DNA from: Candidatus Fermentibacteraceae bacterium
GTDB taxonomy: Bacteria; Fermentibacterota; Fermentibacteria; Fermentibacterales; JCC-6
DNA: 64,000 nt
Direction of reading: 5' to 3'
Assembly (NCBI GenBank): GCA_016744855.1
Contig: JADGDO010000004.1
Coordinates: 99,006-163,005 of the forward strand
Below, piece by piece: positions 3,363-56,823 of the stretch (position 1 is the first letter of the stretch; each line of letters begins with the position of its first letter). Below the pieces are notes generated by a model that ran no database searches, had not been told where the DNA came from, and saw only the letters and a list, made by a program, of their open reading frames with translations. Made by a program: the position numbers and the translations under genes.

Positions 3363-3619
3363 AAGAATTCCTTTCTTTTATACGTTTCTGTAATAGTAAA
3401 CTGACAATACGGGGGTAAGCATTGAACTGTCAATGCCCTGCACTCCTATCGAGCTCAGATCCAGAGATTTCACTTTATCGGTTGAGGTAGTACTTGCCTT
3501 CAATCAAACTGTATAAATCCGCCATTCCTTGATAGACTCAGAATATGAACTACTGTTTTCTTTACTGGTCTTTTGCAATATTCATCCATATTCTTAAAAA
3601 TTCAATAAAGGAGTGCAAT

Positions 3620-5974
3620 ATGAAGTTTAGTTTGCCAAGCATTGTATTGGTGGCTATTATTACTGCTAGTTTCTCTTTTGGTAAAGAATTTGTAGTTACA
3701 ATACCAGTTGATGAATACAATTGCTCTCTTTCAGGCATATCTTCTGGAGCTTCAATTACCATCGAAGGAGTCCCAGGTATTGGCATAGTCGGTGCCCCGA
3801 TATTACCTGCAGTTCCCTTGAAACTAGCCCTGCCCACTGCGAATAGAGCCATATCAATTCGGATTTCAGAGATTTCATACAGTTCTGGAGAACATCTGGA
3901 GTATATTCCCCCAATGAGTAGGCCTGTTCCCACATCATGGGAGCATACATGCACTCCTGCTATACCAGATCCAGCTATTTATGAGCAAAACGAGTTTTTC
4001 CCTTCGACATCGGTAGTGCTGACGGGATCGGGAGTTTTATGGGGAATACCCATTGCAACTCTTACAATGTATCCAGCCAGATGGAATCCTATTTCACACC
4101 GAGTTGAATACATTGAATCTCTTACTCTGACTGTTGAAACCGAATACCACCCTGATGTTGTCAGGGTTAGCAGGAGAACAGCTGATAGTGAGAACCGTTC
4201 AATTGATATTCTCAGAAAACTTGTTGTGAACCCGGAAGACGTCTCTGCATCAGGTGCTGCAATCGTTCAACCTAGAGACCTTCAGTTTGGTCAGTACGTG
4301 GTTATATGTCCAGCTGAGTATCAGGAGGAATTTCAGGTTCTTGCAGACTGGAAAACCAGCAAGGGTATTCCTACTGCTGTTTATACAACAGACTGGGTAA
4401 CGACTAACTATTCCTATGGTGACCAACCTCAAAATATCCGTGCATTTCTCACTGATTGCATTTCTGAGGGAACAGATTACGCGCTTCTGGGGGGTGATGA
4501 TGATGTACTAGAGGCAAGGCAGGTAATACTTTCATCCCTGCAGATATCCCGTCCGTCAGATCTGTATTTTATAGACATTAATGATACAAATGTTGGTGTG
4601 GATAACTGGGATTCTAACAATAATTCGATATGGGGAGAATCCTATGATTCAGTAGAGTGGCATCCCGATATCTTTACAGGCAGGGCCTCAGTTAACAGTG
4701 AGGCTGAAGCTGAGCTGTTTGTTAACAAGGTTCTCTACTATGAACACGTTCTTGAAACATGGGCATCCAATCCCTGCAGCAGAGCGCCTGTGGAGATGAG
4801 AATCGGGTACAGCACTGGTGCTTATGAATACGGCGCTTCGGATACCTTGTGGGGAAGTACTGATGCTGAGCTTATTTCTTCCATGATTCCTGATACATGG
4901 CAAGAGGAGAAAAGATACGAGTCTGATGGTAACAATTCAGCTGCCCTCACCATTGAAATGATCAATATGGGGATGAACCAAGTGTTGCTTTTCTCGCATG
5001 GAGGTTACTGGGGATTTTACACCAGCTATGGTGACATTATGGACACCACCCATGTCAGCAATCTCGAGAATATTTCTCTTGGAGGAAGTGTTTCTATCTG
5101 GAACTCAACCGCTTGTTGTATAGGCTCATTCGACTCTCTTACATGCGTGGCCGATGCCTGGCTGAACAGCCCAGACGGTGGTGGATTCGGCTCCTTCAAT
5201 ACCCACTACGGATACTATAGTGGAATCAGTGCAGCTATAGTCGAGCGGTTTTTTCAAGAATACACTGTGAACGATGTTTACAACCATGGTATAGCGCACT
5301 CTCTTGCAATTGATTACTTCTGCCCACCAGACTGGTATTCTGCTACTGAAGATGTAGTGAAGGGGTACAATCTTTTTGGAGACCCTGAGTTACCGATGTG
5401 GACAGAAGAGCCTATTGATCTCTGGGTAATGCACCAGCCGGCAATTACAGGAAACACTACTTTGAGTGTAGTGGTCACTAGCCAGGGTGTTGCTCTAGAG
5501 GGTGCTAGGGTTTGTGTTCAGAAGGGAGACTGGCAGACTGGAGAGGTTTATGATGCAGCTGTCACTGATGTTACCGGAATGGCACAGGTCTGGGCGGCCC
5601 CGGAGACAACTGATCCAATCACAATTACAGTATGGGCGCATAACCATAACCTATATACAGGTGAAATCCAGGTTTTAGAAACAGGTCTGGTTTCCGGTGC
5701 TGTAGCAAATGTTACACTGATAGAATCAGTTTCTCCTGCCCCTGTTCACTCAGAAGCAGCTGTTAAGTTCTCAACATCAGAACTGGGGCTGGTCAAGCTG
5801 AACGTGTTCGATCTGCAGGGAAGAGAGGTAGAGACTCTTGTAACTGATGTTCTTGAAGCGGGTAGCCATTCTTACAACTGGAATTTGGAAGATGGTATTG
5901 CTTCAGGTATATATTTTGTAAGGCTCAGCAATGCTTCTCAAACCAGTACAAGACCAGTTGTTGTTTTAAGGTAA
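3620..5974 (+). CDS. Gingipain-like cysteine peptidase (family C25) with T9SS C-terminal sorting domain
   Basis: Signal peptide after the Met at 3620, preceded by an AAAGGAG RBS; candidate catalytic His in FSHGGYWG and Cys in STACCIGSFD; the C-terminus ...GIYFVRLSNASQTSTRPVVVLR is a Por/T9SS CTD. Confidence 0.7.
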   Translation: MKFSLPSIVLVAIITASFSFGKEFVVTIPVDEYNCSLSGISSGASITIEGVPGIGIVGAPILPAVPLKLALPTANRAISIRISEISYSSGEHLEYIPPMSRPVPTSWEHTCTPAIPDPAIYEQNEFFPSTSVVLTGSGVLWGIPIATLTMYPARWNPISHRVEYIESLTLTVETEYHPDVVRVSRRTADSENRSIDILRKLVVNPEDVSASGAAIVQPRDLQFGQYVVICPAEYQEEFQVLADWKTSKGIPTAVYTTDWVTTNYSYGDQPQNIRAFLTDCISEGTDYALLGGDDDVLEARQVILSSLQISRPSDLYFIDINDTNVGVDNWDSNNNSIWGESYDSVEWHPDIFTGRASVNSEAEAELFVNKVLYYEHVLETWASNPCSRAPVEMRIGYSTGAYEYGASDTLWGSTDAELISSMIPDTWQEEKRYESDGNNSAALTIEMINMGMNQVLLFSHGGYWGFYTSYGDIMDTTHVSNLENISLGGSVSIWNSTACCIGSFDSLTCVADAWLNSPDGGGFGSFNTHYGYYSGISAAIVERFFQEYTVNDVYNHGIAHSLAIDYFCPPDWYSATEDVVKGYNLFGDPELPMWTEEPIDLWVMHQPAITGNTTLSVVVTSQGVALEGARVCVQKGDWQTGEVYDAAVTDVTGMAQVWAAPETTDPITITVWAHNHNLYTGEIQVLETGLVSGAVANVTLIESVSPAPVHSEAAVKFSTSELGLVKLNVFDLQGREVETLVTDVLEAGSHSYNWNLEDGIASGIYFVRLSNASQTSTRPVVVLR

Positions 5975-9367: not shown

Positions 9368-10603
9368 ATGTTAACTAATTATCTATCCGGCTTAAACCGG
9401 AAAACGACGGGTGATTTCATGGACATTTTCCAGAAGTGTTTTGATTATGACAGGCCTGAGCAGGTAAAAGCCATGGGTCTTTATCCATATTTTGTTCCGC
9501 TGGAGGGGCATGTCGGTGCAGAAATGGAAATTGGTGGTCACAGCCTTATTATGCTTGGTTCCAATAACTATCTCGGGCTGACAGACAATCCATATGTAAT
9601 GGAGAAATCCCGAGAAGCCATTACCAAATACGGTACAGGATGTACCGGCAGCAGATTTATGAATGGAACTCTTGATATTCATATTGAACTTGAGGAAAGA
9701 TTGGCTAAATTCCTTAAACGAGATGCCTGTCTTACTTTCAGTACCGGTTTTCAATCCAATCTTGGTGCAATTAGTACTCTTGGACAGCGAGGTGATATTC
9801 TCTACCTCGACAGGGAAGATCATGCTTCAATAATAGATGGTGCCAGGCTTGGTTACGCCAAGGTTGTTAAATACAGACACAAGGATCTGGATCATCTTCG
9901 CCATATTCTGGAAAAATACCCCGGAGAACCTGGCCTTATTGTTACCGACGGTGTTTTCAGTATGGGTGGTGATCTTGCAGACATCAATGGTCTCGCTGAT
10001 CTTGCAGAGGAATTCGGAGTTCGCCTGCTTGTGGACGATGCACACGGTGTAGGTTCTATGGGTGCAACCGGTATGGGTACAGCAGAGCACCAGGGTTGTC
10101 ACGACAGGGTGGATATTACAGTCGGTACTTTTAGTAAATCATTCGCCTGTATAGGGGGATTTGCTGCTGGCGATGCCAAGGTAATCAGTTACCTTCGCCA
10201 CAACGCTAGAACAAATATTTTCAGCGCTAGTCTTTCTCCAGCTTCCGTTGCTACTGTTATTGCCTCGCTTGATGTATTGGAAAAAGAACCGGAACTTCTT
10301 GGTAAAGTCCACAGAGCCACCAAGAGATGCCGAGAGGGTTTGTCATCCCTTGGTTTCAATATAGGTCAGAGTGAAGCTCCAATTATTCCCATAGTGGTTG
10401 GTGAGGATCTGGATTGCTTCAGATTCTGGAAAGATATGTTTGATAACGGTGTGTTTACAAACCCCGTTATTTCTCCCGCTGTAGAGCCCGGTGCCGCAAT
10501 GCTTAGAACAAGTTTTATGGCAAGCCATACGGATGATATGATAGATCGTGCTCTTGAGATCTTTAAAAAGGTTGGCCGTGATCACAATCTGATAGGCGGC
10601 TAG
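9368..10603 (+). CDS. Alpha-oxoamine synthase family PLP enzyme (serine palmitoyltransferase / 8-amino-7-oxononanoate synthase-like)
   Basis: Class-II aminotransferase fold with GSNNYLGL, DDAHGVG and GTFSKSF (PLP lysine) motifs; alternative start at 9419. Confidence 0.75.
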   Translation: MLTNYLSGLNRKTTGDFMDIFQKCFDYDRPEQVKAMGLYPYFVPLEGHVGAEMEIGGHSLIMLGSNNYLGLTDNPYVMEKSREAITKYGTGCTGSRFMNGTLDIHIELEERLAKFLKRDACLTFSTGFQSNLGAISTLGQRGDILYLDREDHASIIDGARLGYAKVVKYRHKDLDHLRHILEKYPGEPGLIVTDGVFSMGGDLADINGLADLAEEFGVRLLVDDAHGVGSMGATGMGTAEHQGCHDRVDITVGTFSKSFACIGGFAAGDAKVISYLRHNARTNIFSASLSPASVATVIASLDVLEKEPELLGKVHRATKRCREGLSSLGFNIGQSEAPIIPIVVGEDLDCFRFWKDMFDNGVFTNPVISPAVEPGAAMLRTSFMASHTDDMIDRALEIFKKVGRDHNLIGG

Positions 10604-10604
10604 A

Positions 10605-11726
10605 ATGAAGTATTCTATTGAGAAAGTAGATAGCAGAAAAACAACAAAAGAATTTCTAATGCTACCATTCCGCATTAACAAGGATGACCCCCACTGGGTA
10701 CCTCCTTTGCTGATGAATGTGCGCCAGCTGATGAACGGTAAGCATCCCTTCCACGAGCACGCGGAGGTTGAATTCTACATTGCCAGAGATTCTGAAGGCA
10801 GAACTGCCGGTAGAATCAGTGCTTGTGTAAACAGAACTCATAATGAATACCATAATGAAAAAACCGGATTTTTCGGTTTCCTTGAATGTGAAAATGACCC
10901 GGAGCTTGCAGCACTTCTTCTGAAAACTGCAGAAGACTTTGTTAAGCCTCTTGGAATGGAAAGTATTCGAGGCCCATTCAACCTATCTACCAATGAGGAA
11001 TGCGGCCTTCTTGTCGAGGGGTTTGATACAGACCCCAGGCTTATGATGCTTCACAACCCCCAGTGGCTTGGGGGGCTTGTTGAAGCAGCCGGTTATACCA
11101 AACTTATGGATCTATTGGCGTACTGGCTTGATGGCGACAGTGATAAGTTCCAGAAGCTTTTCAGAATTGCAAAAATGGTGGAAAAGCGGGGTGAGTGGAA
11201 GGTTAGAGGTATCAATCTTAAAGACCTGGCTGAAGACATGCGAAAAATCATGGATGTCTACAACGAGTGCTGGGGCGAGAACTGGGGTTTCGTACCCATG
11301 ACTCCAAGAGAACTCACTGCAATGGTTGAAGAATTGAAGATGCTTATCACTTCTGAGCTTTCTCCCATTGTTGAGCTGAATGGGGAAGTTGTTGCGTTCG
11401 GAATAGGTCTTCCGGATGCCAACATAGCATTCAAAAAAGGCAATGGAAGAGCAGTACCGTCTGTTCTTGCTTTGAAGGTGCCACCATTTAAGGTAAACAT
11501 TGACCGGGTAAGAGTTCTGCTGATGGGTGTGAAAAAACAGCACAGAAACAAGGGGCTTGAGGCCCTAGTAATAGATAGACTGATAAAGAACAGCGCGAAA
11601 ATGGGAATGGGTCGGGGTGAGCTTTCCTGGATACTCGAGAACAATCGTGAGATGAGAGCCATACTCGAAAAACAGATGAATGCAGATCTGTATAAGCGAT
11701 ACAGAATTTACGAGAAGGAATTATAG
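10605..11726 (+). CDS. GNAT-fold N-acyltransferase-like protein (candidate bacterial ceramide synthase-like)
   Basis: 373 aa, begins immediately after the alpha-oxoamine synthase stop (operon); acyltransferase-like fold inferred, no confident family match by eye. Confidence 0.4.
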   Translation: MKYSIEKVDSRKTTKEFLMLPFRINKDDPHWVPPLLMNVRQLMNGKHPFHEHAEVEFYIARDSEGRTAGRISACVNRTHNEYHNEKTGFFGFLECENDPELAALLLKTAEDFVKPLGMESIRGPFNLSTNEECGLLVEGFDTDPRLMMLHNPQWLGGLVEAAGYTKLMDLLAYWLDGDSDKFQKLFRIAKMVEKRGEWKVRGINLKDLAEDMRKIMDVYNECWGENWGFVPMTPRELTAMVEELKMLITSELSPIVELNGEVVAFGIGLPDANIAFKKGNGRAVPSVLALKVPPFKVNIDRVRVLLMGVKKQHRNKGLEALVIDRLIKNSAKMGMGRGELSWILENNREMRAILEKQMNADLYKRYRIYEKEL

Positions 11727-13499
11727 ATGACTGAAAGAGAACTGGTTGATCTTTACATAAAGTTTTTTGAAGGCAAGGGTCACAAAAGAATTCCGGGGGC
11801 ATCGATAATCCCCGAGAACGATTCAACTATCCTCTTTACGCCTGCTGGTATGCAGCCTCTGGTTCCATACCTTCTGGGAGAGAAGCATCCTCAGGGGAAA
11901 AGGTTGGTTGACGTTCAGAAGTGTATTAGAACCGGTGATATCGAAGAGGTGGGAGACGCAACACACCTCACTTTTTTCAGAATGCTGGGAAACTGGTCTC
12001 TGGGTGGTTATTTCAAAAAAGAAGCTATTCAGTGGAGCTGGGAATTCCTGACTGGTGAAGAATGGCTGGGTTTCGACCCCGAAAGAATAAGTGTAACAGT
12101 TTTTGCAGGTGAAGGAGACATCCCTCCTGACAGAGAAGCAGAAGCTTTCTGGCTCGAAGCAGGTGTTCCTCCTGAGAGAATATACAGTCTGGGGATGAAG
12201 GACAACTGGTGGGGACCAACTGGTGCTACTGGCCCCTGTGGGCCTGATACCGAAATGTTCTTCGATACCGGGGCCGAGCCCTGCGGTGAGAATTGTATAC
12301 CTGGTTGTTCATGCGGTAAATACTTCGAGGTGTGGAACGATGTTTTCATGGAATACAGGAAAACTGAAGCAGCTTCTTTCGAACCCCTCTCTCAGAAAAA
12401 TGTTGATACTGGAATGGGTGTTGAGCGCACAGTAGCAATGCTGGGTGGTCACAAGACAGTATACGAAATCGGTGTTCTGAAACCCCTTATTGCAAGGATA
12501 AGAGAGCTTACTGCTTCTTCCGATCCGGGTCGATCTGAAAAAGTCTTAGCAGATCATATCAGAAGCGCAACGCATATTCTCGGTGATGACTTGGGTGTTG
12601 TACCATCCAATGTTGATCAGGGTTATGTACTCAGAAGGCTTATCCGACTTGCTATTCGACATGGAATGAAGCTAGAAATTCAAGATGGATTCCTCACTGA
12701 TCTTGCTTCCATAGTTATAGAAATAGAGGGTGAAGATTACCCTGAACTGAAGAGAAACAGCTCCACTATTATTGATGAACTTGAGAGAGAAGAAAAACTT
12801 TTCGGTGAAACTCTTGTTGCAGGCATGAAGCAGTTCAACAAGATGCTTCCTAATCTTCTGAAGAACCCTCAAAAAATCATAGCTGGCAGGCTTGCCTTTA
12901 AGTTGTATGATACCTACGGTTTCCCGGTTGAACTTACTGCAGACCTTGCAGTTGAACATGGATTGACCGTGGACATGGACGGATACAACAAGGCTTTCGA
13001 CAAACATCGCCAGCTTTCCAAGCAGGGTGCGGACAAGAAATTCAAGGGTGGCCTCGCGGATAACAGTGAGATGGTAACTAAACTTCATACCGCTACGCAT
13101 CTGCTCCACGCTGCCTTGCGGAAAGTTCTTGGGGAAACTGTACAGCAGAAGGGTAGTAATATCACTGCTGAAAGACTGAGATTCGACTTTCTCTTTGCTG
13201 AAAAAATGACTCAGGAACAGAAAGACGAAGTTGAAGCTCTTGTGAATAGCGCAATCAACGATAAAATTGCAGTGGAAATGAAGGAAATGTCTCCGGATGA
13301 GGCAGAGAAGCTAGGGGCTTTAGGGTTCTTTAAAGATAAGTATGGTGATGTTGTAAAGGTTTACAGTATAGGAGAATACTCAACTGAAATATGTGGTGGA
13401 CCTCATGTTGGAAACACCTCTGAGCTCGTCAGATTCAAGCTCGTCTCCGAGAAAAGCTCGTCCCGTGGTGTAAGAAGGATCAAGGCGGTAGTTGAATGA
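11727..13499 (+). CDS. alaS: Alanine--tRNA ligase, short form lacking the C-terminal C-Ala domain
   Basis: FTPAGMQP, RTGDIEEVG and FFRMLGNWS catalytic-core motifs; editing-domain HTATHLLHAAL and CGGPHV motifs; 590 aa. Confidence 0.85.
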   Translation: MTERELVDLYIKFFEGKGHKRIPGASIIPENDSTILFTPAGMQPLVPYLLGEKHPQGKRLVDVQKCIRTGDIEEVGDATHLTFFRMLGNWSLGGYFKKEAIQWSWEFLTGEEWLGFDPERISVTVFAGEGDIPPDREAEAFWLEAGVPPERIYSLGMKDNWWGPTGATGPCGPDTEMFFDTGAEPCGENCIPGCSCGKYFEVWNDVFMEYRKTEAASFEPLSQKNVDTGMGVERTVAMLGGHKTVYEIGVLKPLIARIRELTASSDPGRSEKVLADHIRSATHILGDDLGVVPSNVDQGYVLRRLIRLAIRHGMKLEIQDGFLTDLASIVIEIEGEDYPELKRNSSTIIDELEREEKLFGETLVAGMKQFNKMLPNLLKNPQKIIAGRLAFKLYDTYGFPVELTADLAVEHGLTVDMDGYNKAFDKHRQLSKQGADKKFKGGLADNSEMVTKLHTATHLLHAALRKVLGETVQQKGSNITAERLRFDFLFAEKMTQEQKDEVEALVNSAINDKIAVEMKEMSPDEAEKLGALGFFKDKYGDVVKVYSIGEYSTEICGGPHVGNTSELVRFKLVSEKSSSRGVRRIKAVVE

Positions 13500-14386
13500 T
13501 TTTTTCACTGATTGCTCTTCTTGCAACAGCAAACTTCAGCGGTACTTGGGAAACCACTTACGGAGATATGGTTCTCGAACAGAATGGCACTTCAGTTACC
13601 GGCTGGTACAGCTATGGAACCATGTCCACAATCGAGGGAACTGTTACCCAAGGTGGAAAAATGATGTTCACCTATGACGAAGGAACAGCTGCCGGAAGAG
13701 GATGGTTTGTTCTCTCTGAAAACGGTACATCCTTTTCAGGAGAATGGAGAGCAGAAGGGGCGCAGGGTTGGAGTGACTGGGAAGGCCACCGGGCAGACGG
13801 TGAACCATCTACCTGGGTTTTAATTCTTGAAGCAGAGTGGCAGGAGTCAATGCGCGAGAATGAGTATTCCTTCGGTGAAATGCTTGATGCCTGGCTTGGC
13901 AGACTTGAGGGCATTGAGATTAGACATCGTTTCATTCACGATCTCGATGATGTTCGGAATTTCTGTGCAGAAGCCGCGGTGCTCTCCGGTGATGTCTACC
14001 TGATTTTTGCCTCTCATGGAACAACTGCCGGTATTGCACTAAACTCTGGAACAGTATCAGCACGGGACCTTGCAGAAGCTCTGTTACCAATGACAAATCT
14101 TCAGCTGGTTCATTTCAGCTGCTGTGAGATTATGGCAGGAGGTACTGATGAGGCTATTATTAACTCTAGATCAAACTGGCATGACGACTTCGCAGTATCC
14201 GGTTACACTACCTCCGTGGACTGGGGTGGCAGTGCCATTATAGAATTTTACTATCTCAATCAGATACTGGAGAATGGACTTACTCCTGTAGAAGCGGCAC
14301 GGGCCCTCGAGAGTGATATCGGATTTTCCGGTGCATCATCAACACCCTGGATGGATGGTGCGGGTTTCGAGATTCAAACACCCTGA
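13496..14386 (+). CDS. Secreted clan CD (gingipain/caspase-like) cysteine peptidase-like protein
   Basis: N-terminal hydrophobic signal-like segment, then a beta-rich region, then a His in IFASHGTTAG and a Cys in VHFSCCEIMAGG, resembling the C25/C14 His-Cys dyad; ATGA overlap with the alaS stop. Confidence 0.4.
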   Translation: MIFSLIALLATANFSGTWETTYGDMVLEQNGTSVTGWYSYGTMSTIEGTVTQGGKMMFTYDEGTAAGRGWFVLSENGTSFSGEWRAEGAQGWSDWEGHRADGEPSTWVLILEAEWQESMRENEYSFGEMLDAWLGRLEGIEIRHRFIHDLDDVRNFCAEAAVLSGDVYLIFASHGTTAGIALNSGTVSARDLAEALLPMTNLQLVHFSCCEIMAGGTDEAIINSRSNWHDDFAVSGYTTSVDWGGSAIIEFYYLNQILENGLTPVEAARALESDIGFSGASSTPWMDGAGFEIQTP

Positions 14387-14399
14387 GAATCATATAGAA

Positions 14400-15440
14400 A
14401 TGAGGAACATGGATTTACTGAAGAGATTGTGTGAGGTCGACGGCATATCCGGTAGGGAAGATGCTGTTGTCAAGCTTCTGGAAGAGGAACTCAAAGATAG
14501 TGCTGACGAAATCTGGACAGATGCCATTAAGAACATAACTGCAGTTAAGTATGGAACTGAAGGTGAGGACAGGCTTCGAGTAATGCTCGCTGGGCATATT
14601 GATGAGATCGGTTTTCTGATTTACAACATAGACAAGAATGGTTTTGCATCAATAGTTCCGGTAGGCGGTTGGAGTGCATCATCTATTTTCGGCCACACCG
14701 TTAAGGTTCACACCCGAAAAGGTGAGTTGCTTACAGGTGTTGTCTGTGCTCCTCCTGCACTCACTCCTGAAGCCGCTGGGAAAGCTATCAAGCTAGACTC
14801 TCTCTACATTGATTTCGGTATGACCGGCGACGATGTAACAGAAAAAGTTTCCCGCGGAGACTGGGTCTCCATGGATACGAAATTCACAGAGATGGGTGAT
14901 TGTTTTGTGGCAAAGGCTTTTGATGACAGAGTCGGAGCCTACATAATTGCAGAAGCTTTTAAGAAGTACAGCAATCCTGCAATTGATGTTTACTGTGTAG
15001 GCACATCTCAGGAAGAGGTAGGTCTTAGAGGATCTACAGTAGCCGCTCAGACAATAATGCCCGATATCGGAATTGCAGCAGACATCACTGGAGCAGGAGA
15101 TACACCTGGTTTCCCTGCAGCAAAGAAAATCTGCGATTTGGGAAAAGGTGTTGCTATCAAGCAGCAGGATGCCAGCGTTATCTGTTCACCTTCCCTCGTT
15201 AATTTCATCCGTGACATTGCAGAGGAAAAGGAAATTGATCATCAGATGGAGATACTTGTAAGGGGTGGTACAGATACCAGCTCGATGCAGAAATTTGGCG
15301 GTAATACTCACGCCACCTGCCTCTCGATTCCCACTAGAAATGGACACAGCCCCGTCGCCATCATACATAGGCATGATGTTGAGACAGCAGTTGAACTTCT
15401 TGTGGAATTCCTGAACAAGGCTCATCTTTTTAAGGGCTAA
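14400..15440 (+). CDS. M42 family aminopeptidase (FrvX / glutamyl aminopeptidase-like)
   Basis: DGISGREDAV...MLAGHIDEIGF...VGTSQEEVGLRG motifs typical of the M42 family. Confidence 0.75.
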   Translation: MRNMDLLKRLCEVDGISGREDAVVKLLEEELKDSADEIWTDAIKNITAVKYGTEGEDRLRVMLAGHIDEIGFLIYNIDKNGFASIVPVGGWSASSIFGHTVKVHTRKGELLTGVVCAPPALTPEAAGKAIKLDSLYIDFGMTGDDVTEKVSRGDWVSMDTKFTEMGDCFVAKAFDDRVGAYIIAEAFKKYSNPAIDVYCVGTSQEEVGLRGSTVAAQTIMPDIGIAADITGAGDTPGFPAAKKICDLGKGVAIKQQDASVICSPSLVNFIRDIAEEKEIDHQMEILVRGGTDTSSMQKFGGNTHATCLSIPTRNGHSPVAIIHRHDVETAVELLVEFLNKAHLFKG

Positions 15441-15634: not shown

Positions 15635-17413
15635 ATGATTAAAAATGACAGGCTAATCACAGAACTGAATGAGAGTATTAAACGCGGTAATTATCTTCAA
15701 GCTATAGATTCTGCTAAACGAAATCTTGTTCAAACAGGTGATCCTCTACTAAGAAAACCTCTGGCCCTGGCGTTATCCAGGATGGGTCATGCAGAGGAGG
15801 CTCTAAGAGTTCTCAAGCCCCTTTTTCGCAAAGGTGCAGATCCGGAAACAAACGGACTCATGGGGGGAATCTTGAAACGAAACTGGCTCTCTTCCGGAAA
15901 CAGTAAGTATCTTGAAGATTCCTACAAATACTACCTTAAGGCATTTAAAGAGGGTGGTGGTTACTGGACCGGAATTAATGCAGCAACCCTCGCCTGCATC
16001 ATGAATAAAGATATTTCTCTAGTTCTGGCCGAAGAGGTATTGGATATTTGCTGGGAAGAGTACGGAAGGATGGGAACCAGAAGCTGCTTCTGGTTGCTGG
16101 TTTCAATAGCGGAAGCCCATCTTGTCAAGCGCGATATATCCACTGCAATTAAATGGTATAAGCTTGTAACACCAATGGCTTTCAAATCTGTAGGGCAGAT
16201 GAAAACGGTCAGACGGAATGCTAGAATTTTGGGTGAGAAACTCGGTACAGAGTCACTTGAACTGCTTATGAATACTATTACAGCACCTAGAGTTGCTTTC
16301 TTTGCAGGTCACAAGATTGATAGAGAAGGGATGCCTCCTAGATTCCCTCAGAAGGAAACTGAGGTTGTTAAGAATAAACTGAGAGCTACCCTTGGTAAAT
16401 TAAAAATCAGTGTCGGAGTTGCATCACTTGATGACGGCTCAGATATTCTCTTTCATGAGTGTTTGATTGAAGCTGGAAGGCAATGCAGAGTTATTCTTCC
16501 ATCACCAATTGCTGATTTCAGGAAAAAACTCGCGTCTGATGATCCAGGCGGGTGGGTTGAGAGGTTTGATAAAGTTTTGGCTGCCGCATCTTGTGTCGAA
16601 ATTGTTTCTAATTCAGTTTTTACAAAAGACTGGGGTATTGTCTACGAGTTGGCTACAGAGTACATGATCGGTTATGCCATGAGTCTTGCAGAAGAGTTCG
16701 ATGGAGAGATTGTTCCTCTAGTTGTCTGGGATAATAAGACGCAGGATAAGCGCGGGGGAACTTATTCAGCTGTAAAGATGCTTCGTTCTCTCGGGCATGA
16801 ACCGGTAGTAGTAACGGTTTTTCCAAAATCATCGCTGCAGGACTTCAACGGGTCCAAAACTAAAACATCGTTGTTGGAAACCAAAGGATATGTGCCTTTG
16901 AAGAATACATTTGTTGTTGTTGGTGTTGCTAAGGATATACGAAATGATGATGAAATAGCTGATGTGTTATCAAAGTACATTAAAACGGTTTCTGATATTA
17001 CTTCAACGGGCAGTCTTTCCAGTGTCGTTGCTAAAAGAAGCTTAAGCGGCAAGGAGATTTGTCTTACTTTCTCAACCATTGAATCTGCTGAAGAATTTAT
17101 TCGTTCTTTCAGGAAGAAACATTCGAAGAGCACAATATTCGCACATGTGGGTCTCAGTGTCCGGTTTGACGTTTCACTTTCCAGAGCAGGAGACTTTTTC
17201 AGCCCCGCTCTAATCGAGGCAGTCAAACTAGTCAGAGAGCTTTCTGCAGGTCAAACTTTCAGCACTGGTACATTCAGATCACTCGCATATCTTGAGAAGA
17301 GAAACCAGTACCGATACACGTATCGTGGTCAATTCAGTATTGATGAACGCAATGTTAAAATCTTCGAGATGAATTGTAGAAGTAGAACCGGCTCCAGACT
17401 GACAGAATTCTGA
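15635..17413 (+). CDS. Multidomain protein of unknown function: N-terminal TPR-like helical domain, central Rossmann-like (SLOG/LOG-like) domain, C-terminal degenerate nucleotide-cyclase-like region
   Basis: AAGGAG RBS before ATG 15635; central VGVASLDDGSDILFHECLIEAGRQCRVILPS...DDPGGWVERF resembles LOG/DprA-type Rossmann motifs; C-terminal IFAHVGLSV...AGDFFSPALIEAVKL faintly resembles cyclase beta-strands but lacks metal-binding Asp residues. Confidence 0.5.
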   Translation: MIKNDRLITELNESIKRGNYLQAIDSAKRNLVQTGDPLLRKPLALALSRMGHAEEALRVLKPLFRKGADPETNGLMGGILKRNWLSSGNSKYLEDSYKYYLKAFKEGGGYWTGINAATLACIMNKDISLVLAEEVLDICWEEYGRMGTRSCFWLLVSIAEAHLVKRDISTAIKWYKLVTPMAFKSVGQMKTVRRNARILGEKLGTESLELLMNTITAPRVAFFAGHKIDREGMPPRFPQKETEVVKNKLRATLGKLKISVGVASLDDGSDILFHECLIEAGRQCRVILPSPIADFRKKLASDDPGGWVERFDKVLAAASCVEIVSNSVFTKDWGIVYELATEYMIGYAMSLAEEFDGEIVPLVVWDNKTQDKRGGTYSAVKMLRSLGHEPVVVTVFPKSSLQDFNGSKTKTSLLETKGYVPLKNTFVVVGVAKDIRNDDEIADVLSKYIKTVSDITSTGSLSSVVAKRSLSGKEICLTFSTIESAEEFIRSFRKKHSKSTIFAHVGLSVRFDVSLSRAGDFFSPALIEAVKLVRELSAGQTFSTGTFRSLAYLEKRNQYRYTYRGQFSIDERNVKIFEMNCRSRTGSRLTEF

Positions 17414-17515
17414 GAATAGCAGTCAAGTAATTCCTTTGGGTTTACTCAGGGTTTCTTGAAATGTATCTTCAATCTTGATGAGATTTTTATTCAGTCCGCA
17501 ACAAAAGAGGTAAGA

Positions 17516-19711
17516 ATGAGATACATTTCTTTGATATTGCTCTGTTCCATTGCTTTTGCCGGGGGGGACCTTCCGGGAATTACGGGAGATTATCTTGAAC
17601 CGGTTGAGGTTACGGGCAGCTCTGTGCATCTTGTTACGTCTGTTCCTTCAAGGTTTAATGTGAATCCGGATACTCCGGAACCTGTTTCTGTTTTTGAGCC
17701 ACCAGCTGAGTACGAAGTAGTTGATTCATTCGATTGCCGATTTGTTGTGCCTGACAAAGAGGGGATTTGCCCAGCAGTTATCTCTCTTTCGGATGAAACA
17801 ATAGAGCCAGATGCAGAAATCACTTTAACGGATGATGCTCAACAGGCTGTAGATCTTGCACCAGAGTGGCTTCAGGACCATCTTATCTGGAAGTTTTCAA
17901 TACTTACAGAGGCTAATCAGGACAGGTATGGGGCCTTGTTGCTTGCTCATCAGGGACAGAATTACTTTGATGAACTAGCCTTCACTGTTGCTTATCTTTC
18001 CTGGACAATCTTGGCGAATCCAAGCTTGGATGAGACATTGCTCGTAGATAATGCTCAGGGTATTTATGACCATGATCCCTATCTCAGTTATGTAAATGTG
18101 AATGACTATGCTGGTGTAGACTACTACAGTACTACTGAATACAACACTATTGTGGGATCTGACACGGTATGGGTTGAAATACCAAAGGAGATTTACTACC
18201 ATTTCATAGTGATGCCGAAGGTTTCTGATGAGAAACCTCTCAATGATTCTACTGTTTATGATGAATTCTGGCGTCAGTATCTCTGGGATATGGATGATGC
18301 CGGGTATCCTGTTTTTAATGAGGTTCTGAACGAGAATGTACTTGTTTTCTGGGATGAGCAGACAAAGAATTACGGATGGTCAACAACACCGGTTTTCAGT
18401 GACAGTCTTCATGCCGTCGACATAATCAGTAAATGGAACCGCGCTATTATGCCTGACGGAGCCAGCGGTAACAGACCTGTCCAGCCCAATGTTATTGCCC
18501 ACGAGCACAACGGTAATTGCGGGGAGACTCAGGATCTGCTCTCTGCTTCTGCCAGGGTTGGGCTGATTCCGGTTGCCTGTACTATGGACATCAATGAGGA
18601 TCATGTGTGGTGTGAGATTTGGTGGGACGGTGAATGGCGTGGTTGGTATGTCGATACTGTTAACAATCACAACTGCGGTTATGACGCTGATTATGGTGGT
18701 TCAAAGGAAGTCAGCTGTGTCTGGAGCTGGCGCAATGATGGTTTTACCTGGGATGTTGTGGATTACTTCTCAGACTACTGCACATTTACAGTAACAGTTA
18801 CCGATTCTGCTGGAATTCCAGTTGACAATGCCAGTGTTCAGATTGCCAGTGAAGGCTGGCAGACAACTACTATATACAGGGGTACATGGGGAGAAACAGA
18901 TTGCAACGGGCAGATCACATTCAAGCTTGGTAATAATCAGAATTACTACTTGAGTATTGCCAGTTCTCTCGGTAATTTCGGCGGTGGTAGTTTCCAGGAG
19001 GTAATAGTCAATAGTGTTTCGGGTCAGGAGTACTATTTCGACTGGAGTCCTGAAAACCCTATGCCAGAACTTGAACTGAATGAAGTCAGTGAGGGTTCCT
19101 GGACAAAGTATCTTATCCAGGTTGATTACAATCTGCCTGCTGATATTATGAATGGAAGAGATTATTATGCAAGTCCCAGATCTGAGTATGCAGAACCTAT
19201 GGAAGATGGAACTGCAGACTTTTTCATTGTCGATTCTGCTAACTGGGAACTGTATCAGTCAGGAGAGGAATTCGACTGCTATGAGCTTATTCAAGGAGAG
19301 AGCAGTGGCATGGTATGGTTTTATGCTCCTCACACCGACGACTGGCACATAGTATTCAGCGGCGACAGACACCAGGGTGTTCAGACATTTGCTGAAGCTG
19401 AGTTTACCCTTTGGGAGCATGACGGCACTGGTATCAGTGGCGGAATCTCAACAGGAAATACTCCTGTTGTTTTCCCAAACCCATGCGTTAATACTGCTTC
19501 AGTTAAATTCACTACAACTGAAGCTGGGCGAACAGCGATCACAATGTATGATATCCATGGACGAGTAGTAAGTTCTCTTTCTGACGAGCAGATGGAAGCG
19601 GGAAGCCATGAACTTGTTCTTCCGACAGACGATCTTTCCAGTGGTCTCTATTTCTTGAGACTTGAGGGAGAGGGTTTAAACTCAATGCAGAGCGTTACTG
19701 TTTTAAGATAG
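17516..19711 (+). CDS. Transglutaminase-like cysteine protease superfamily protein with T9SS C-terminal sorting domain
   Basis: Signal peptide MRYISLILLCSIAFAGG; transglutaminase core Cys-His-Asp (NGNCGETQD ... DHVWCEIWWDGEWRGWYVD); the C-terminus GLYFLRLEGEGLNSMQSVTVLR is a T9SS CTD. Confidence 0.65.
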   Translation: MRYISLILLCSIAFAGGDLPGITGDYLEPVEVTGSSVHLVTSVPSRFNVNPDTPEPVSVFEPPAEYEVVDSFDCRFVVPDKEGICPAVISLSDETIEPDAEITLTDDAQQAVDLAPEWLQDHLIWKFSILTEANQDRYGALLLAHQGQNYFDELAFTVAYLSWTILANPSLDETLLVDNAQGIYDHDPYLSYVNVNDYAGVDYYSTTEYNTIVGSDTVWVEIPKEIYYHFIVMPKVSDEKPLNDSTVYDEFWRQYLWDMDDAGYPVFNEVLNENVLVFWDEQTKNYGWSTTPVFSDSLHAVDIISKWNRAIMPDGASGNRPVQPNVIAHEHNGNCGETQDLLSASARVGLIPVACTMDINEDHVWCEIWWDGEWRGWYVDTVNNHNCGYDADYGGSKEVSCVWSWRNDGFTWDVVDYFSDYCTFTVTVTDSAGIPVDNASVQIASEGWQTTTIYRGTWGETDCNGQITFKLGNNQNYYLSIASSLGNFGGGSFQEVIVNSVSGQEYYFDWSPENPMPELELNEVSEGSWTKYLIQVDYNLPADIMNGRDYYASPRSEYAEPMEDGTADFFIVDSANWELYQSGEEFDCYELIQGESSGMVWFYAPHTDDWHIVFSGDRHQGVQTFAEAEFTLWEHDGTGISGGISTGNTPVVFPNPCVNTASVKFTTTEAGRTAITMYDIHGRVVSSLSDEQMEAGSHELVLPTDDLSSGLYFLRLEGEGLNSMQSVTVLR

Positions 19712-54600: not shown

Positions 54601-56823
54601 ATGATCAGGGTTATTGGGATCTTATTGATTTTATCTGTATCTGCATTTGCAGGAGTAGTTTACAGGGCTGTACAGCCTGTGGACGCAGCTCAGTATCTTG
54701 GTACAGATGGTGGACCTGCGGTAGAGTTCAATCTCACTGCACTTGAAACTGTTGAGGGTACTGTTGCCGGTTACGGCAGTGGAGTTACTTTCCGTATTCC
54801 CGGCGGAGGCTATGGCGCTGAAGTTGGAACTCCTGATGTTCCATGCATCAGAAGAATGGTCCAGATTCCAAATACAGGCGACATTACTATTGAGATTATC
54901 AGTTCAGAATCATCCGTTCTTGGCAACTACAATGTTCTTCCTACTCAGCCATTCATGGATAGAAACGGAAATGTTGCTCCCCTGAGAGTTAACGAAGATG
55001 TTTATTCATCCTCAGCTGGATATCCTTCATCTCCTGTTGTTATCGAAAGCATTTCTATTCTTAGAGATATTCGTGTAGCGTGGGTAAGATTCAATCCAGT
55101 ATCAGTTAATCCTGTTACAGGTGAAACTGTTATCACTACAAACGTTTCAGTAAGACTCGTAAGCGGCTCCGAAGAGGGCGAAAACGAGCTTTTCAGATCA
55201 TCTAACGGTACAACCAGAAGTTACCAGGCCATCTACAAAGATGTTCTCGGTCTTCAGCTTACAGATGCACTCGTTGATGGTTCTTATCTTGTTATCGGAC
55301 CCGAGGAAGCAATAGCTCTTGCAAGTGATCTTATTCAGTGGAAACGCGAAAAGGGTTACGAGGTTCATGTTGCTACCACTGAAACAATTGGTACAACATC
55401 TTCAGCTATCGATTCCTACATTGAAGATGCCTTTAATACCTGGACAAATCCTCCAGAGTACTGCCTTCTTCTTGGTGATGAAGCTGCAGTACCGGTTTAC
55501 TGGGTAGGATCAATCGCTGCTGATAACCAGTACGGTGTTATCGGATCAGGTGTTGACCCCAGTATTCACGTTGCCAGACTCTGTTCCGACACTGGCAGTC
55601 TTGCTTACTCATCATGGAAAGTATGGGCATACGAAACTGACCCATACGAACCTTCTGCCAGCTGGTTCCAGTATGCTGTCAGCATTGGTTCGACAGATTT
55701 CCAGGATCCTATGATGTCTTTCAGGTTCAAAGAGGTCATGGCAAATGACGGTAATATGGATGTAATGCTTTATTGCAACAGCGGAGCTTACGGTGGCATT
55801 GCCCCTTCAGTGGCAAACCTCTCTGAAAAATTCAACCTCGGAACTTCCCTTGTAAGTTACATTGGACATGGAGCAATTACCCAGTGGGTTACAACAGGTT
55901 TTAACAATTCCGATGTTGCTGCTCTGACGAATGGAAGAATGCTTCCATGGATCAGCTCTATTGCCTGTAATAACTCAGAATTCGGTGGTGGAACCACCTG
56001 TTTCGGAGAAGCATGGCTTAACTCCGGTACAATTGCTGAGCCCAAAGGAGCAATCGGTTTCATGGGCGCTTCTGTCTCAAGCCCTGTAGGCCCAACTGAT
56101 TCTCTCGCAATGTATCAGTTCAAGGGTTACTTCCAGGAAGAAATGTACCACATGGGTGCAGCTTTCGACTATGGAAAAATTAAAGCATATGAGTACACCG
56201 GTAGTGTTACCAACAGCAATATGCATCTTATCTTCGGTGAGCCTGAGCATGATATCTTCACTACCACAGGACCCATTGTGCACCTCACCGCAGACTATGA
56301 TGACCAGGTTTCTGTGGGTAACTTCACAGTAAATGTTTCAGCCGCAACAGACGCTTCTGTTGAGGGAGCAATGGTCGGTCTCTGCCAGGGAGAGGTTACT
56401 CTCGGTAGCGGCTACACAGATGCTTCTGGTTCTGTTACAATCAATGTGGAAAGTGTTCCAAGTGGTGATGATGTAACAGTAACTGTTACTGCACACAATC
56501 TCTATCCTCTCCAGGCAACTGTTCCTGCATGGCAGACAGGTGTCGAACAGGAGGAGGGTGGCGTTGTAACCGGTATCAGTCTTAACATCGGTACTCCTAT
56601 TACAGGAACTGCTGCTGTTAACTTTACAGTACCATCCACTGGTCACACAAATCTTAGTGTATTCGATATGAATGGTCGAGTTGTGGAAACACTTGTTAAC
56701 AACGAAGTTGCTGCAGGAAACCACAGTCTTAACTGGGGAGCAAATACCGCAGGCGGTATCTATTTCCTCAGATTGACAACTCCGGACCAGAGTATCGTAA
56801 AGAACTGCGTAGTTCTGCCCTAG
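54601..56823 (+). CDS. Gingipain-like cysteine peptidase (family C25) with T9SS C-terminal sorting domain
   Basis: Signal peptide; His in SYIGHGAITQW and Cys in SSIACNNSEFGGG; the C-terminus GGIYFLRLTTPDQSIVKNCVVLP is a T9SS CTD; AAGGAGG RBS. Confidence 0.7.
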   Translation: MIRVIGILLILSVSAFAGVVYRAVQPVDAAQYLGTDGGPAVEFNLTALETVEGTVAGYGSGVTFRIPGGGYGAEVGTPDVPCIRRMVQIPNTGDITIEIISSESSVLGNYNVLPTQPFMDRNGNVAPLRVNEDVYSSSAGYPSSPVVIESISILRDIRVAWVRFNPVSVNPVTGETVITTNVSVRLVSGSEEGENELFRSSNGTTRSYQAIYKDVLGLQLTDALVDGSYLVIGPEEAIALASDLIQWKREKGYEVHVATTETIGTTSSAIDSYIEDAFNTWTNPPEYCLLLGDEAAVPVYWVGSIAADNQYGVIGSGVDPSIHVARLCSDTGSLAYSSWKVWAYETDPYEPSASWFQYAVSIGSTDFQDPMMSFRFKEVMANDGNMDVMLYCNSGAYGGIAPSVANLSEKFNLGTSLVSYIGHGAITQWVTTGFNNSDVAALTNGRMLPWISSIACNNSEFGGGTTCFGEAWLNSGTIAEPKGAIGFMGASVSSPVGPTDSLAMYQFKGYFQEEMYHMGAAFDYGKIKAYEYTGSVTNSNMHLIFGEPEHDIFTTTGPIVHLTADYDDQVSVGNFTVNVSAATDASVEGAMVGLCQGEVTLGSGYTDASGSVTINVESVPSGDDVTVTVTAHNLYPLQATVPAWQTGVEQEEGGVVTGISLNIGTPITGTAAVNFTVPSTGHTNLSVFDMNGRVVETLVNNEVAAGNHSLNWGANTAGGIYFLRLTTPDQSIVKNCVVLP

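Follow-up and report, generated by a model that had tools for sequence, protein, structure and literature searches.

Within a 64,000-nucleotide (nt) stretch of contig JADGDO010000004.1 (Candidatus Fermentibacteraceae bacterium, assembly GCA_016744855.1; hereafter the window), we analyzed an unannotated gene at 13496..14386 whose 296-amino-acid (aa) product combines a short hydrophobic leader, an eight-stranded beta-barrel and a clan CD (CHAT-like) domain. Our preferred reading, to which we assign a probability of roughly 65%, is that this product is an exported clan CD cysteine endopeptidase whose dyad is His174 and Cys210 and whose barrel serves for binding or positioning. That reading builds on observations of fold, topology, dyad conservation, domain architecture, phyletic spread, leader statistics and synteny; catalytic activity, export of this particular orthologue and closeness of His and Cys in space are inferences from them. 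Mechanistically, the leader would probably direct export, the catalytic dyad would consist of His174, where beta3 ends, and Cys210, where beta4 ends, the protein would act as an extracytoplasmic endopeptidase, and the barrel would contribute binding, positioning or regulation without itself being catalytic. The fold and chemistry are already familiar; new are a sizeable family recognized by no curated resource searched here and the combination of an avidin-like barrel with a minimal CHAT-like domain, the barrel module itself also being unannotated. The gene and its parts are as follows.

13496..14386, forward strand: whole open reading frame (ORF) of the unannotated family gene, 296 aa (leader, eight-stranded beta-barrel, clan CD CHAT-like domain)
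13496..13531, forward strand: hydrophobic leader MIFSLIALLATA (residues 1-12), a probable but atypically short signal peptide
13532..13795, forward strand: beta-barrel module (residues 13-100), eight-stranded, up-and-down, avidin/de novo-barrel-like
13802..14383, forward strand: caspase-hemoglobinase (clan CD) domain of ~190 aa (residues 103-296)
14015..14017, forward strand: codon of His174 (SHG), candidate catalytic histidine, two residues past beta3 (166-172)
14123..14125, forward strand: codon of Cys210 (second Cys of SCC), candidate nucleophile, two residues past beta4 (202-208)

The AlphaFold model, computed from an input alignment of 119 sequences (A2), had a mean predicted local distance difference test score (pLDDT) of 91.7 and a predicted template modeling score of 0.80, with disorder confined to residues 1-9 (pLDDT <50). 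Residues 16-99 form eight successive beta-strands in this model, within a region (residues 13-100) that is 18% Gly and 14% Thr, and a six-residue linker joins the barrel to the caspase-hemoglobinase domain. Taking the order of elements from the model's DSSP string, this domain runs through beta1 (106-112), alpha1 (126-134), beta2 (140-146), alpha2 (150-161), beta3 (166-172), three short strands (174-188), alpha3 (189-196), beta4 (202-208), alpha4 (217-222), beta5 (233-237), alpha5 (243-258), an extra helix (264-274) and beta6 (291-294), and the protein terminates just past beta6 with no type IX secretion system (T9SS) sorting domain. In the clan CD fold as McLuskey and Mottram describe it, five helices accompany a 2-1-3-4-5-6 sheet, and a second, small sheet of three strands is inserted between beta3 and alpha3; of the catalytic residues, they place His at the C-terminal end of beta3 and Cys at that of beta4, and they assign the S1 determinants to L1, Cys-2 and L5 (PMC4357240). 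The predicted elements of the 296-aa protein pair one for one with that definition and its overall fold is similar to solved clan CD structures, the closest being a CHAT domain; CHAT ranked above C25 in both structure searches.

The candidate dyad sits within this fold at the canonical positions, with His174 inside IFASHGTTAG and Cys209-Cys210 (codons 14120-14125) inside VHFSCCEIM (VHFSCCEIMAGG). Pooling both homologue searches revealed that His174 and Cys210 are each kept in 201 of 202 complete homologous domains, so that the His/Cys pair exceeds chance; because Cys209, the first Cys of SCC, varies (C/S/A), we take Cys210 as the candidate nucleophile. Since the two residues follow adjacent parallel strands of a confidently matched fold, their side chains would be expected to lie close in space. 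Comparing the family profile with human caspase-3 (sequence identical to PDB 2j30_A) in hhalign yielded one weak alignment (E 0.0073, probability 5%), continuous from alpha1 to beta4, which sets His174 against His121, Cys210 against Cys163 and Ser208 against Gln161, the S1 residue. Invariant or nearly so are Glu112 (end of beta1), Ser208 (Cys-2) and Asp242 (after beta5), and as these correspond to the S1-determinant positions L1, Cys-2 and L5 we would guess, by analogy, at a basic P1 preference; other family-specific invariant residues are Trp115, Arg143, Arg145, His206 and Trp243. The original prediction for this gene, made from the sequence alone, had described a beta-rich, Gly/Thr-rich module followed by a caspase-like domain without a T9SS C-terminal domain, and had likened its SHG and SCC motifs to the His-Cys dyad of clan CD peptidases, all of which agree with the composition, model and conservation given above.

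Sequence searches connected the protein to many relatives and to little that is annotated. Its 120 close homologues are all named ‘hypothetical protein’, without a precomputed Pfam domain, and come from Fermentibacteria, Aegiribacteria, Sabulitectum and WOR-3 metagenome-assembled genomes (MAGs), while HMMER against 1.84 billion cluster representatives returned 805 matches at E<=1e-3 (267 at E<=1e-10), part of the 805 resting on the barrel alone. The 296-aa protein itself had no match in Pfam, NCBIfam, PADLOC or a PDB sequence search, and a search with a profile of the protease-like domain recovered no CHAT-annotated relatives. When 89 diverse family members were scanned against Pfam at a permissive cutoff (E<=10), scattered sub-threshold matches appeared to C80 (2 members), C13 (2 members, E 0.11) and CHAT (1 member, E 0.11), with no C14 match in either the window protein or the 89 members. 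The only Pfam model matched repeatedly was DUF6642 (PF20347), found in 14 of the 89 (best E 0.0015) and spanning the His-to-Cys region in relative P0199 (15.2 bits); none of these 14 reached its gathering score of 27 bits, and the window protein did not match it. In the library searched, no paper named DUF6642, and a search on Fermentibacteria and peptidases found nothing relevant. The family sits isolated in sequence; what ties it to clan CD is its fold and the geometry of its active site, with CHAT as its nearest structural neighbor.

To resolve architecture across the family, we ran two hidden Markov models (HMMs), one of the barrel and one of the protease-like domain, on 268 collected relatives and found that the protease-like domain is nearly always directly preceded by a barrel, with one copy in 130 proteins, two in 82, and three and five in single cases. 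Barrels also form arrays of 2-5 copies lacking the protease-like domain and fused to a sigma factor of the extracytoplasmic function (ECF) type, thioredoxin-like domains or HEAT repeats. In one of these, P0122, a transmembrane segment lies between an ECF sigma domain and five barrels, which puts the barrels on the extracytoplasmic side; judged from such sequences, the barrel has the look of a repeat that binds or senses outside the cytoplasm and lacks annotation. In shape it is comparable to avidin/streptavidin-type and designed 8-stranded barrels, the Cap15 cyclic-dinucleotide receptor barrel and the N-terminal barrel of tyrosinase PvdP, but it shares no sequence similarity with any of them, has no Pfam model and, unlike them, occurs in tandem arrays of up to five. 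Barrel-only arrays of 3-5 copies were seen in P0122, P0156, P0200, P0236 and P0251.

For localization, a crude hydrophobicity rule called a hydrophobic leader in 157 of the 196 full-length barrel-plus-protease proteins. Many orthologues carry a canonical M-R/K-hydrophobic-A-x-A leader, and a two-barrel member of 411 aa from the cultured Legionella steigerwaltii SC-18-C9 (L070 3923..5158) starts with a signal peptide of textbook form. The family is thus likely to be exported, and this may extend to the window orthologue. The signal-like N-terminus originally proposed for the window protein is indeed hydrophobic, but it is only 12 residues long and holds no basic residue.

Turning to what else the protein might be, we begin with the C25 peptidases (gingipains), since the original prediction had called it a ‘mini C25’ domain on the strength of its motifs and of two large C25 peptidases in the window, which are real.

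3545..5974 and 54601..56823: two C25 peptidases with T9SS C-terminal sorting domains (basis: Peptidase_C25 match)

That the protein is a miniature C25 member, i.e., a paralogue of these two that has lost the propeptide, Ig-like and T9SS sorting domains, is barely credible. The motif likeness is the generic clan CD signature (His-Gly/Ala-Cys), and hhalign gave probabilities of just 0.2% and 0.1% against the two window proteins and 0.6% against an alignment (A5) of homologues of the second window gene, which has an invariant His195-Gly196 and, 33 residues further on, an invariant Cys228; in this last profile comparison the aligned segment excluded the active site, and we rejected the C25 identity on these values. 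Pfam Peptidase_C25 likewise matched none of the 89 members even at E<=10, and the structure comparison that recovered a clan CD fold pointed to CHAT, not to a gingipain. The three accessory domains, all present in the window's C25 genes, are absent from the 296-aa protein, which is less than half the size of gingipains (RgpB, 4ief; Kgp, 4rbm; the window C25 genes) and whose domain core is of the six-strand caspase/legumain type. Its relation to the window's C25 peptidases is at the fold level only. The caspases, metacaspases and paracaspases (C14) and legumain (C13) differ as well: at Cys-2 a Ser takes the place of the S1 Gln, sequence similarity falls short of significance (the caspase-3 and C13 values above), and nothing in the family points to an inter-subunit cleavage site or dimerization. 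Compared with CHAT proteases (PF12770; SAVED-CHAT 8tl0, Craspase Csx29/TPR-CHAT, DdvA, separase-like), the family domain is small at only ~190 aa, its His-Cys spacing is 36 versus 47 in SAVED-CHAT (H375/C422) and 45 in the CHAT protease with H862/C907, a barrel stands where CHAT proteases have a TPR, SAVED or other known sensor, and defense-island context is lacking. In SAVED-CHAT the H375A/C422A dyad mutation abolishes activity, and DdvA offers a precedent for a periplasmic CHAT domain. A CHAT protease of a defense system was rejected on context, there being no PADLOC match and no defense, CBASS (cyclic oligonucleotide-based antiphage signaling) or CRISPR genes near any member inspected (eight neighborhoods across phyla).

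An unlikely alternative is a signal-controlled regulatory protease in which binding of a small ligand or a protein by the barrel controls the CHAT-like domain, whose specific cleavage would serve, for example, an envelope-stress, anti-sigma or defense pathway, as in SAVED-CHAT, Craspase or DdvA. Against this, PADLOC gave no match and the neighborhoods inspected held neither CBASS, CRISPR or other defense genes nor a conserved partner, a whole phylum has the gene as a single copy in synteny with housekeeping genes, and one to five tandem barrels fit binding or spacer modules better than a lone allosteric sensor. The likeness to Cap15 is generic, because the barrel fits designed barrels and avidins equally well. 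It would be a long shot that the barrel senses a ligand (a small molecule, a cell-envelope fragment or a peptide fragment) and allosterically activates a minimal periplasmic CHAT-type protease; if it did, the protein would be a compact extracytoplasmic analogue of SAVED-CHAT, Craspase and DdvA, and the barrel would also be the sensing module in a class of ECF-sigma/anti-sigma fusion proteins. Rather improbable, too, is a clan CD domain other than an ordinary hydrolytic endopeptidase, whether a transpeptidase or ligase, a processing domain that cleaves itself as the C80 CPD does in MARTX/Tcd toxins, or a non-catalytic scaffold of the Raptor or c-FLIP kind: the C80 matches fall far under threshold, known pseudo-caspases have lost the Cys whereas here dyad conservation (201/202) speaks against a pseudo-enzyme, and neither a conserved acceptor or substrate gene nor a sorting signal was found in the neighborhoods inspected.

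Several observations nevertheless weigh against the exported endopeptidase that we prefer. No sequence method ties the family significantly to any peptidase family: the single protein and two family profiles found nothing significant in Pfam, NCBIfam, PADLOC or PDB, a profile of the protease-like domain only (A4) recovered nothing but unannotated family members from 5.8 billion proteins, PF12770 was unmatched by the window protein (E<=1) and reached E 0.11 in 1 of 89 members, and the caspase-3 alignment has the low probability (5%) noted above. Proximity of His174 and Cys210 is read from topology. Export is not universal, as the leader is absent in 25 two-barrel relatives, and in the window protein and its closest relatives it is unusually short (12 residues) and uncharged, while alanyl-tRNA synthetase (AlaRS) and the M42 aminopeptidase, the products of the flanking genes, are cytoplasmic partners that fit awkwardly with an exported product. 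Finally, the neighborhoods inspected outside Fermentibacteria held neither a recurrent neighbor nor any substrate or partner gene that is conserved.

If the protein is active, it would represent a new compact clan CD family with one of the smallest CHAT-like domains, exported and barrel-coupled, and would extend the extracellular or periplasmic proteolysis repertoire of protein-fermenting anaerobes beyond gingipain-type enzymes. The family is widespread in uncultured phyla (Fermentibacteria, WOR-3, Planctomycetota), annotation pipelines would gain two new domain models, and because a culturable Legionella carries a member, direct experimental testing is possible.

The gene lies fourth in a tightly packed block of five, whose other members are listed here.

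9368..11726, forward strand: SPT/BioF-like alpha-oxoamine synthase and unannotated GNAT-like protein, head of the five-gene block
11727..13499, forward strand: alaS, encoding a short 590-aa AlaRS (NF002436, 872 bits; PF01411, E 3e-133)
14400..15440, forward strand: M42-family aminopeptidase (PF05343, E 7e-78), without a signal peptide

Intergenic gaps in the block range from -4 to 13 nt. The start ATG of the family gene (13496-13498) shares bases with the alaS TGA (13497-13499) in an ATGA overlap, and its stop (14384-14386) lies 13 nt before the M42 ATG at 14400, which matches the placement originally given for this ORF and, with the profile matches above, for its two flanking genes. Species-representative genomes yielded 80 loci when scanned, and tblastn with the window's neighbors located the block in essentially every Fermentibacteria genome (~50 species), even where the family protein is only 45% identical, and the called genes of Fermentibacter daniensis confirmed it, 4-nt overlap included. 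Beyond this phylum, the alaS/M42 linkage is absent in WOR-3, a ‘Desulfuromonas sp. SDB’ MAG, Planctomycetota, Verrucomicrobiota, Burkholderiales and Legionella, and because no other neighbor recurs there either, we interpret the association as a lineage-specific, operon-like gene order; the linkage that had been singled out as unusual is thus tight and conserved across Fermentibacteria but not a property of the family. The alaS-family gene-M42 order probably reflects co-expression rather than a shared pathway, which is unlikely for an exported product because AlaRS and the M42 protein lack signal peptides, and the alaS linkage is probably unimportant mechanistically. Promoter and terminator scans across the block performed no better than on shuffled sequence. 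The family gene is present as a single copy within the window and has a GC content of 48% (window, 45%).

Several smaller observations concern these loci. A 4-nt overlap with the preceding stop also occurs in unrelated phyla, following a 101-aa ORF in L005 (4699..5004) and an aminotransferase in L007 (3796..5004), and translational coupling to the upstream gene, as suggested by such overlaps, recurs although the upstream gene differs. Peptidase genes (M32, M29, S41, trypsin-like, M42, M28) often lie near family members, and because it is never the same peptidase we regard these as anecdotal. In two Sabulitectum MAGs (L062 4001..4839 and L064 4001..4711) the gene is seemingly disrupted, in S. 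silens JCC-6 by a frameshift and in GMC8.metabat2.149 by a stretch of N, most likely assembly artefacts rather than gene loss. Within the block, the window's alaS best matches the standard bacterial model TIGR00344 (847 positions) only over its first ~430 positions. The SPT/BioF/Kbl-like alpha-oxoamine synthase has NF047600 as its top model, below cutoff, and is followed 1 nt downstream by the GNAT-like protein (373 aa), which received no family assignment; this pair may make an N-acyl amino acid or a sphingoid-type lipid, and examining both genes gave no functional clue for the 296-aa protein.

Downstream of the M42 gene, 15635..17413 (forward strand) encodes a protein of 592 aa that carries a TPR-S ‘sensor’ domain (PF20308, E 5e-21) in its N-terminal part, while the C-terminal ~360 aa are unannotated; NCBIfam and PADLOC gave no match for it, and it occupies this position only in the closest Sabulitectum-clade genomes. 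The gene at 17456..19711 (forward strand) is a third candidate T9SS cargo (Por_Secre_tail, E 4e-10) with a Big_1 domain, and T9SS-sorted proteins are abundant in the window.

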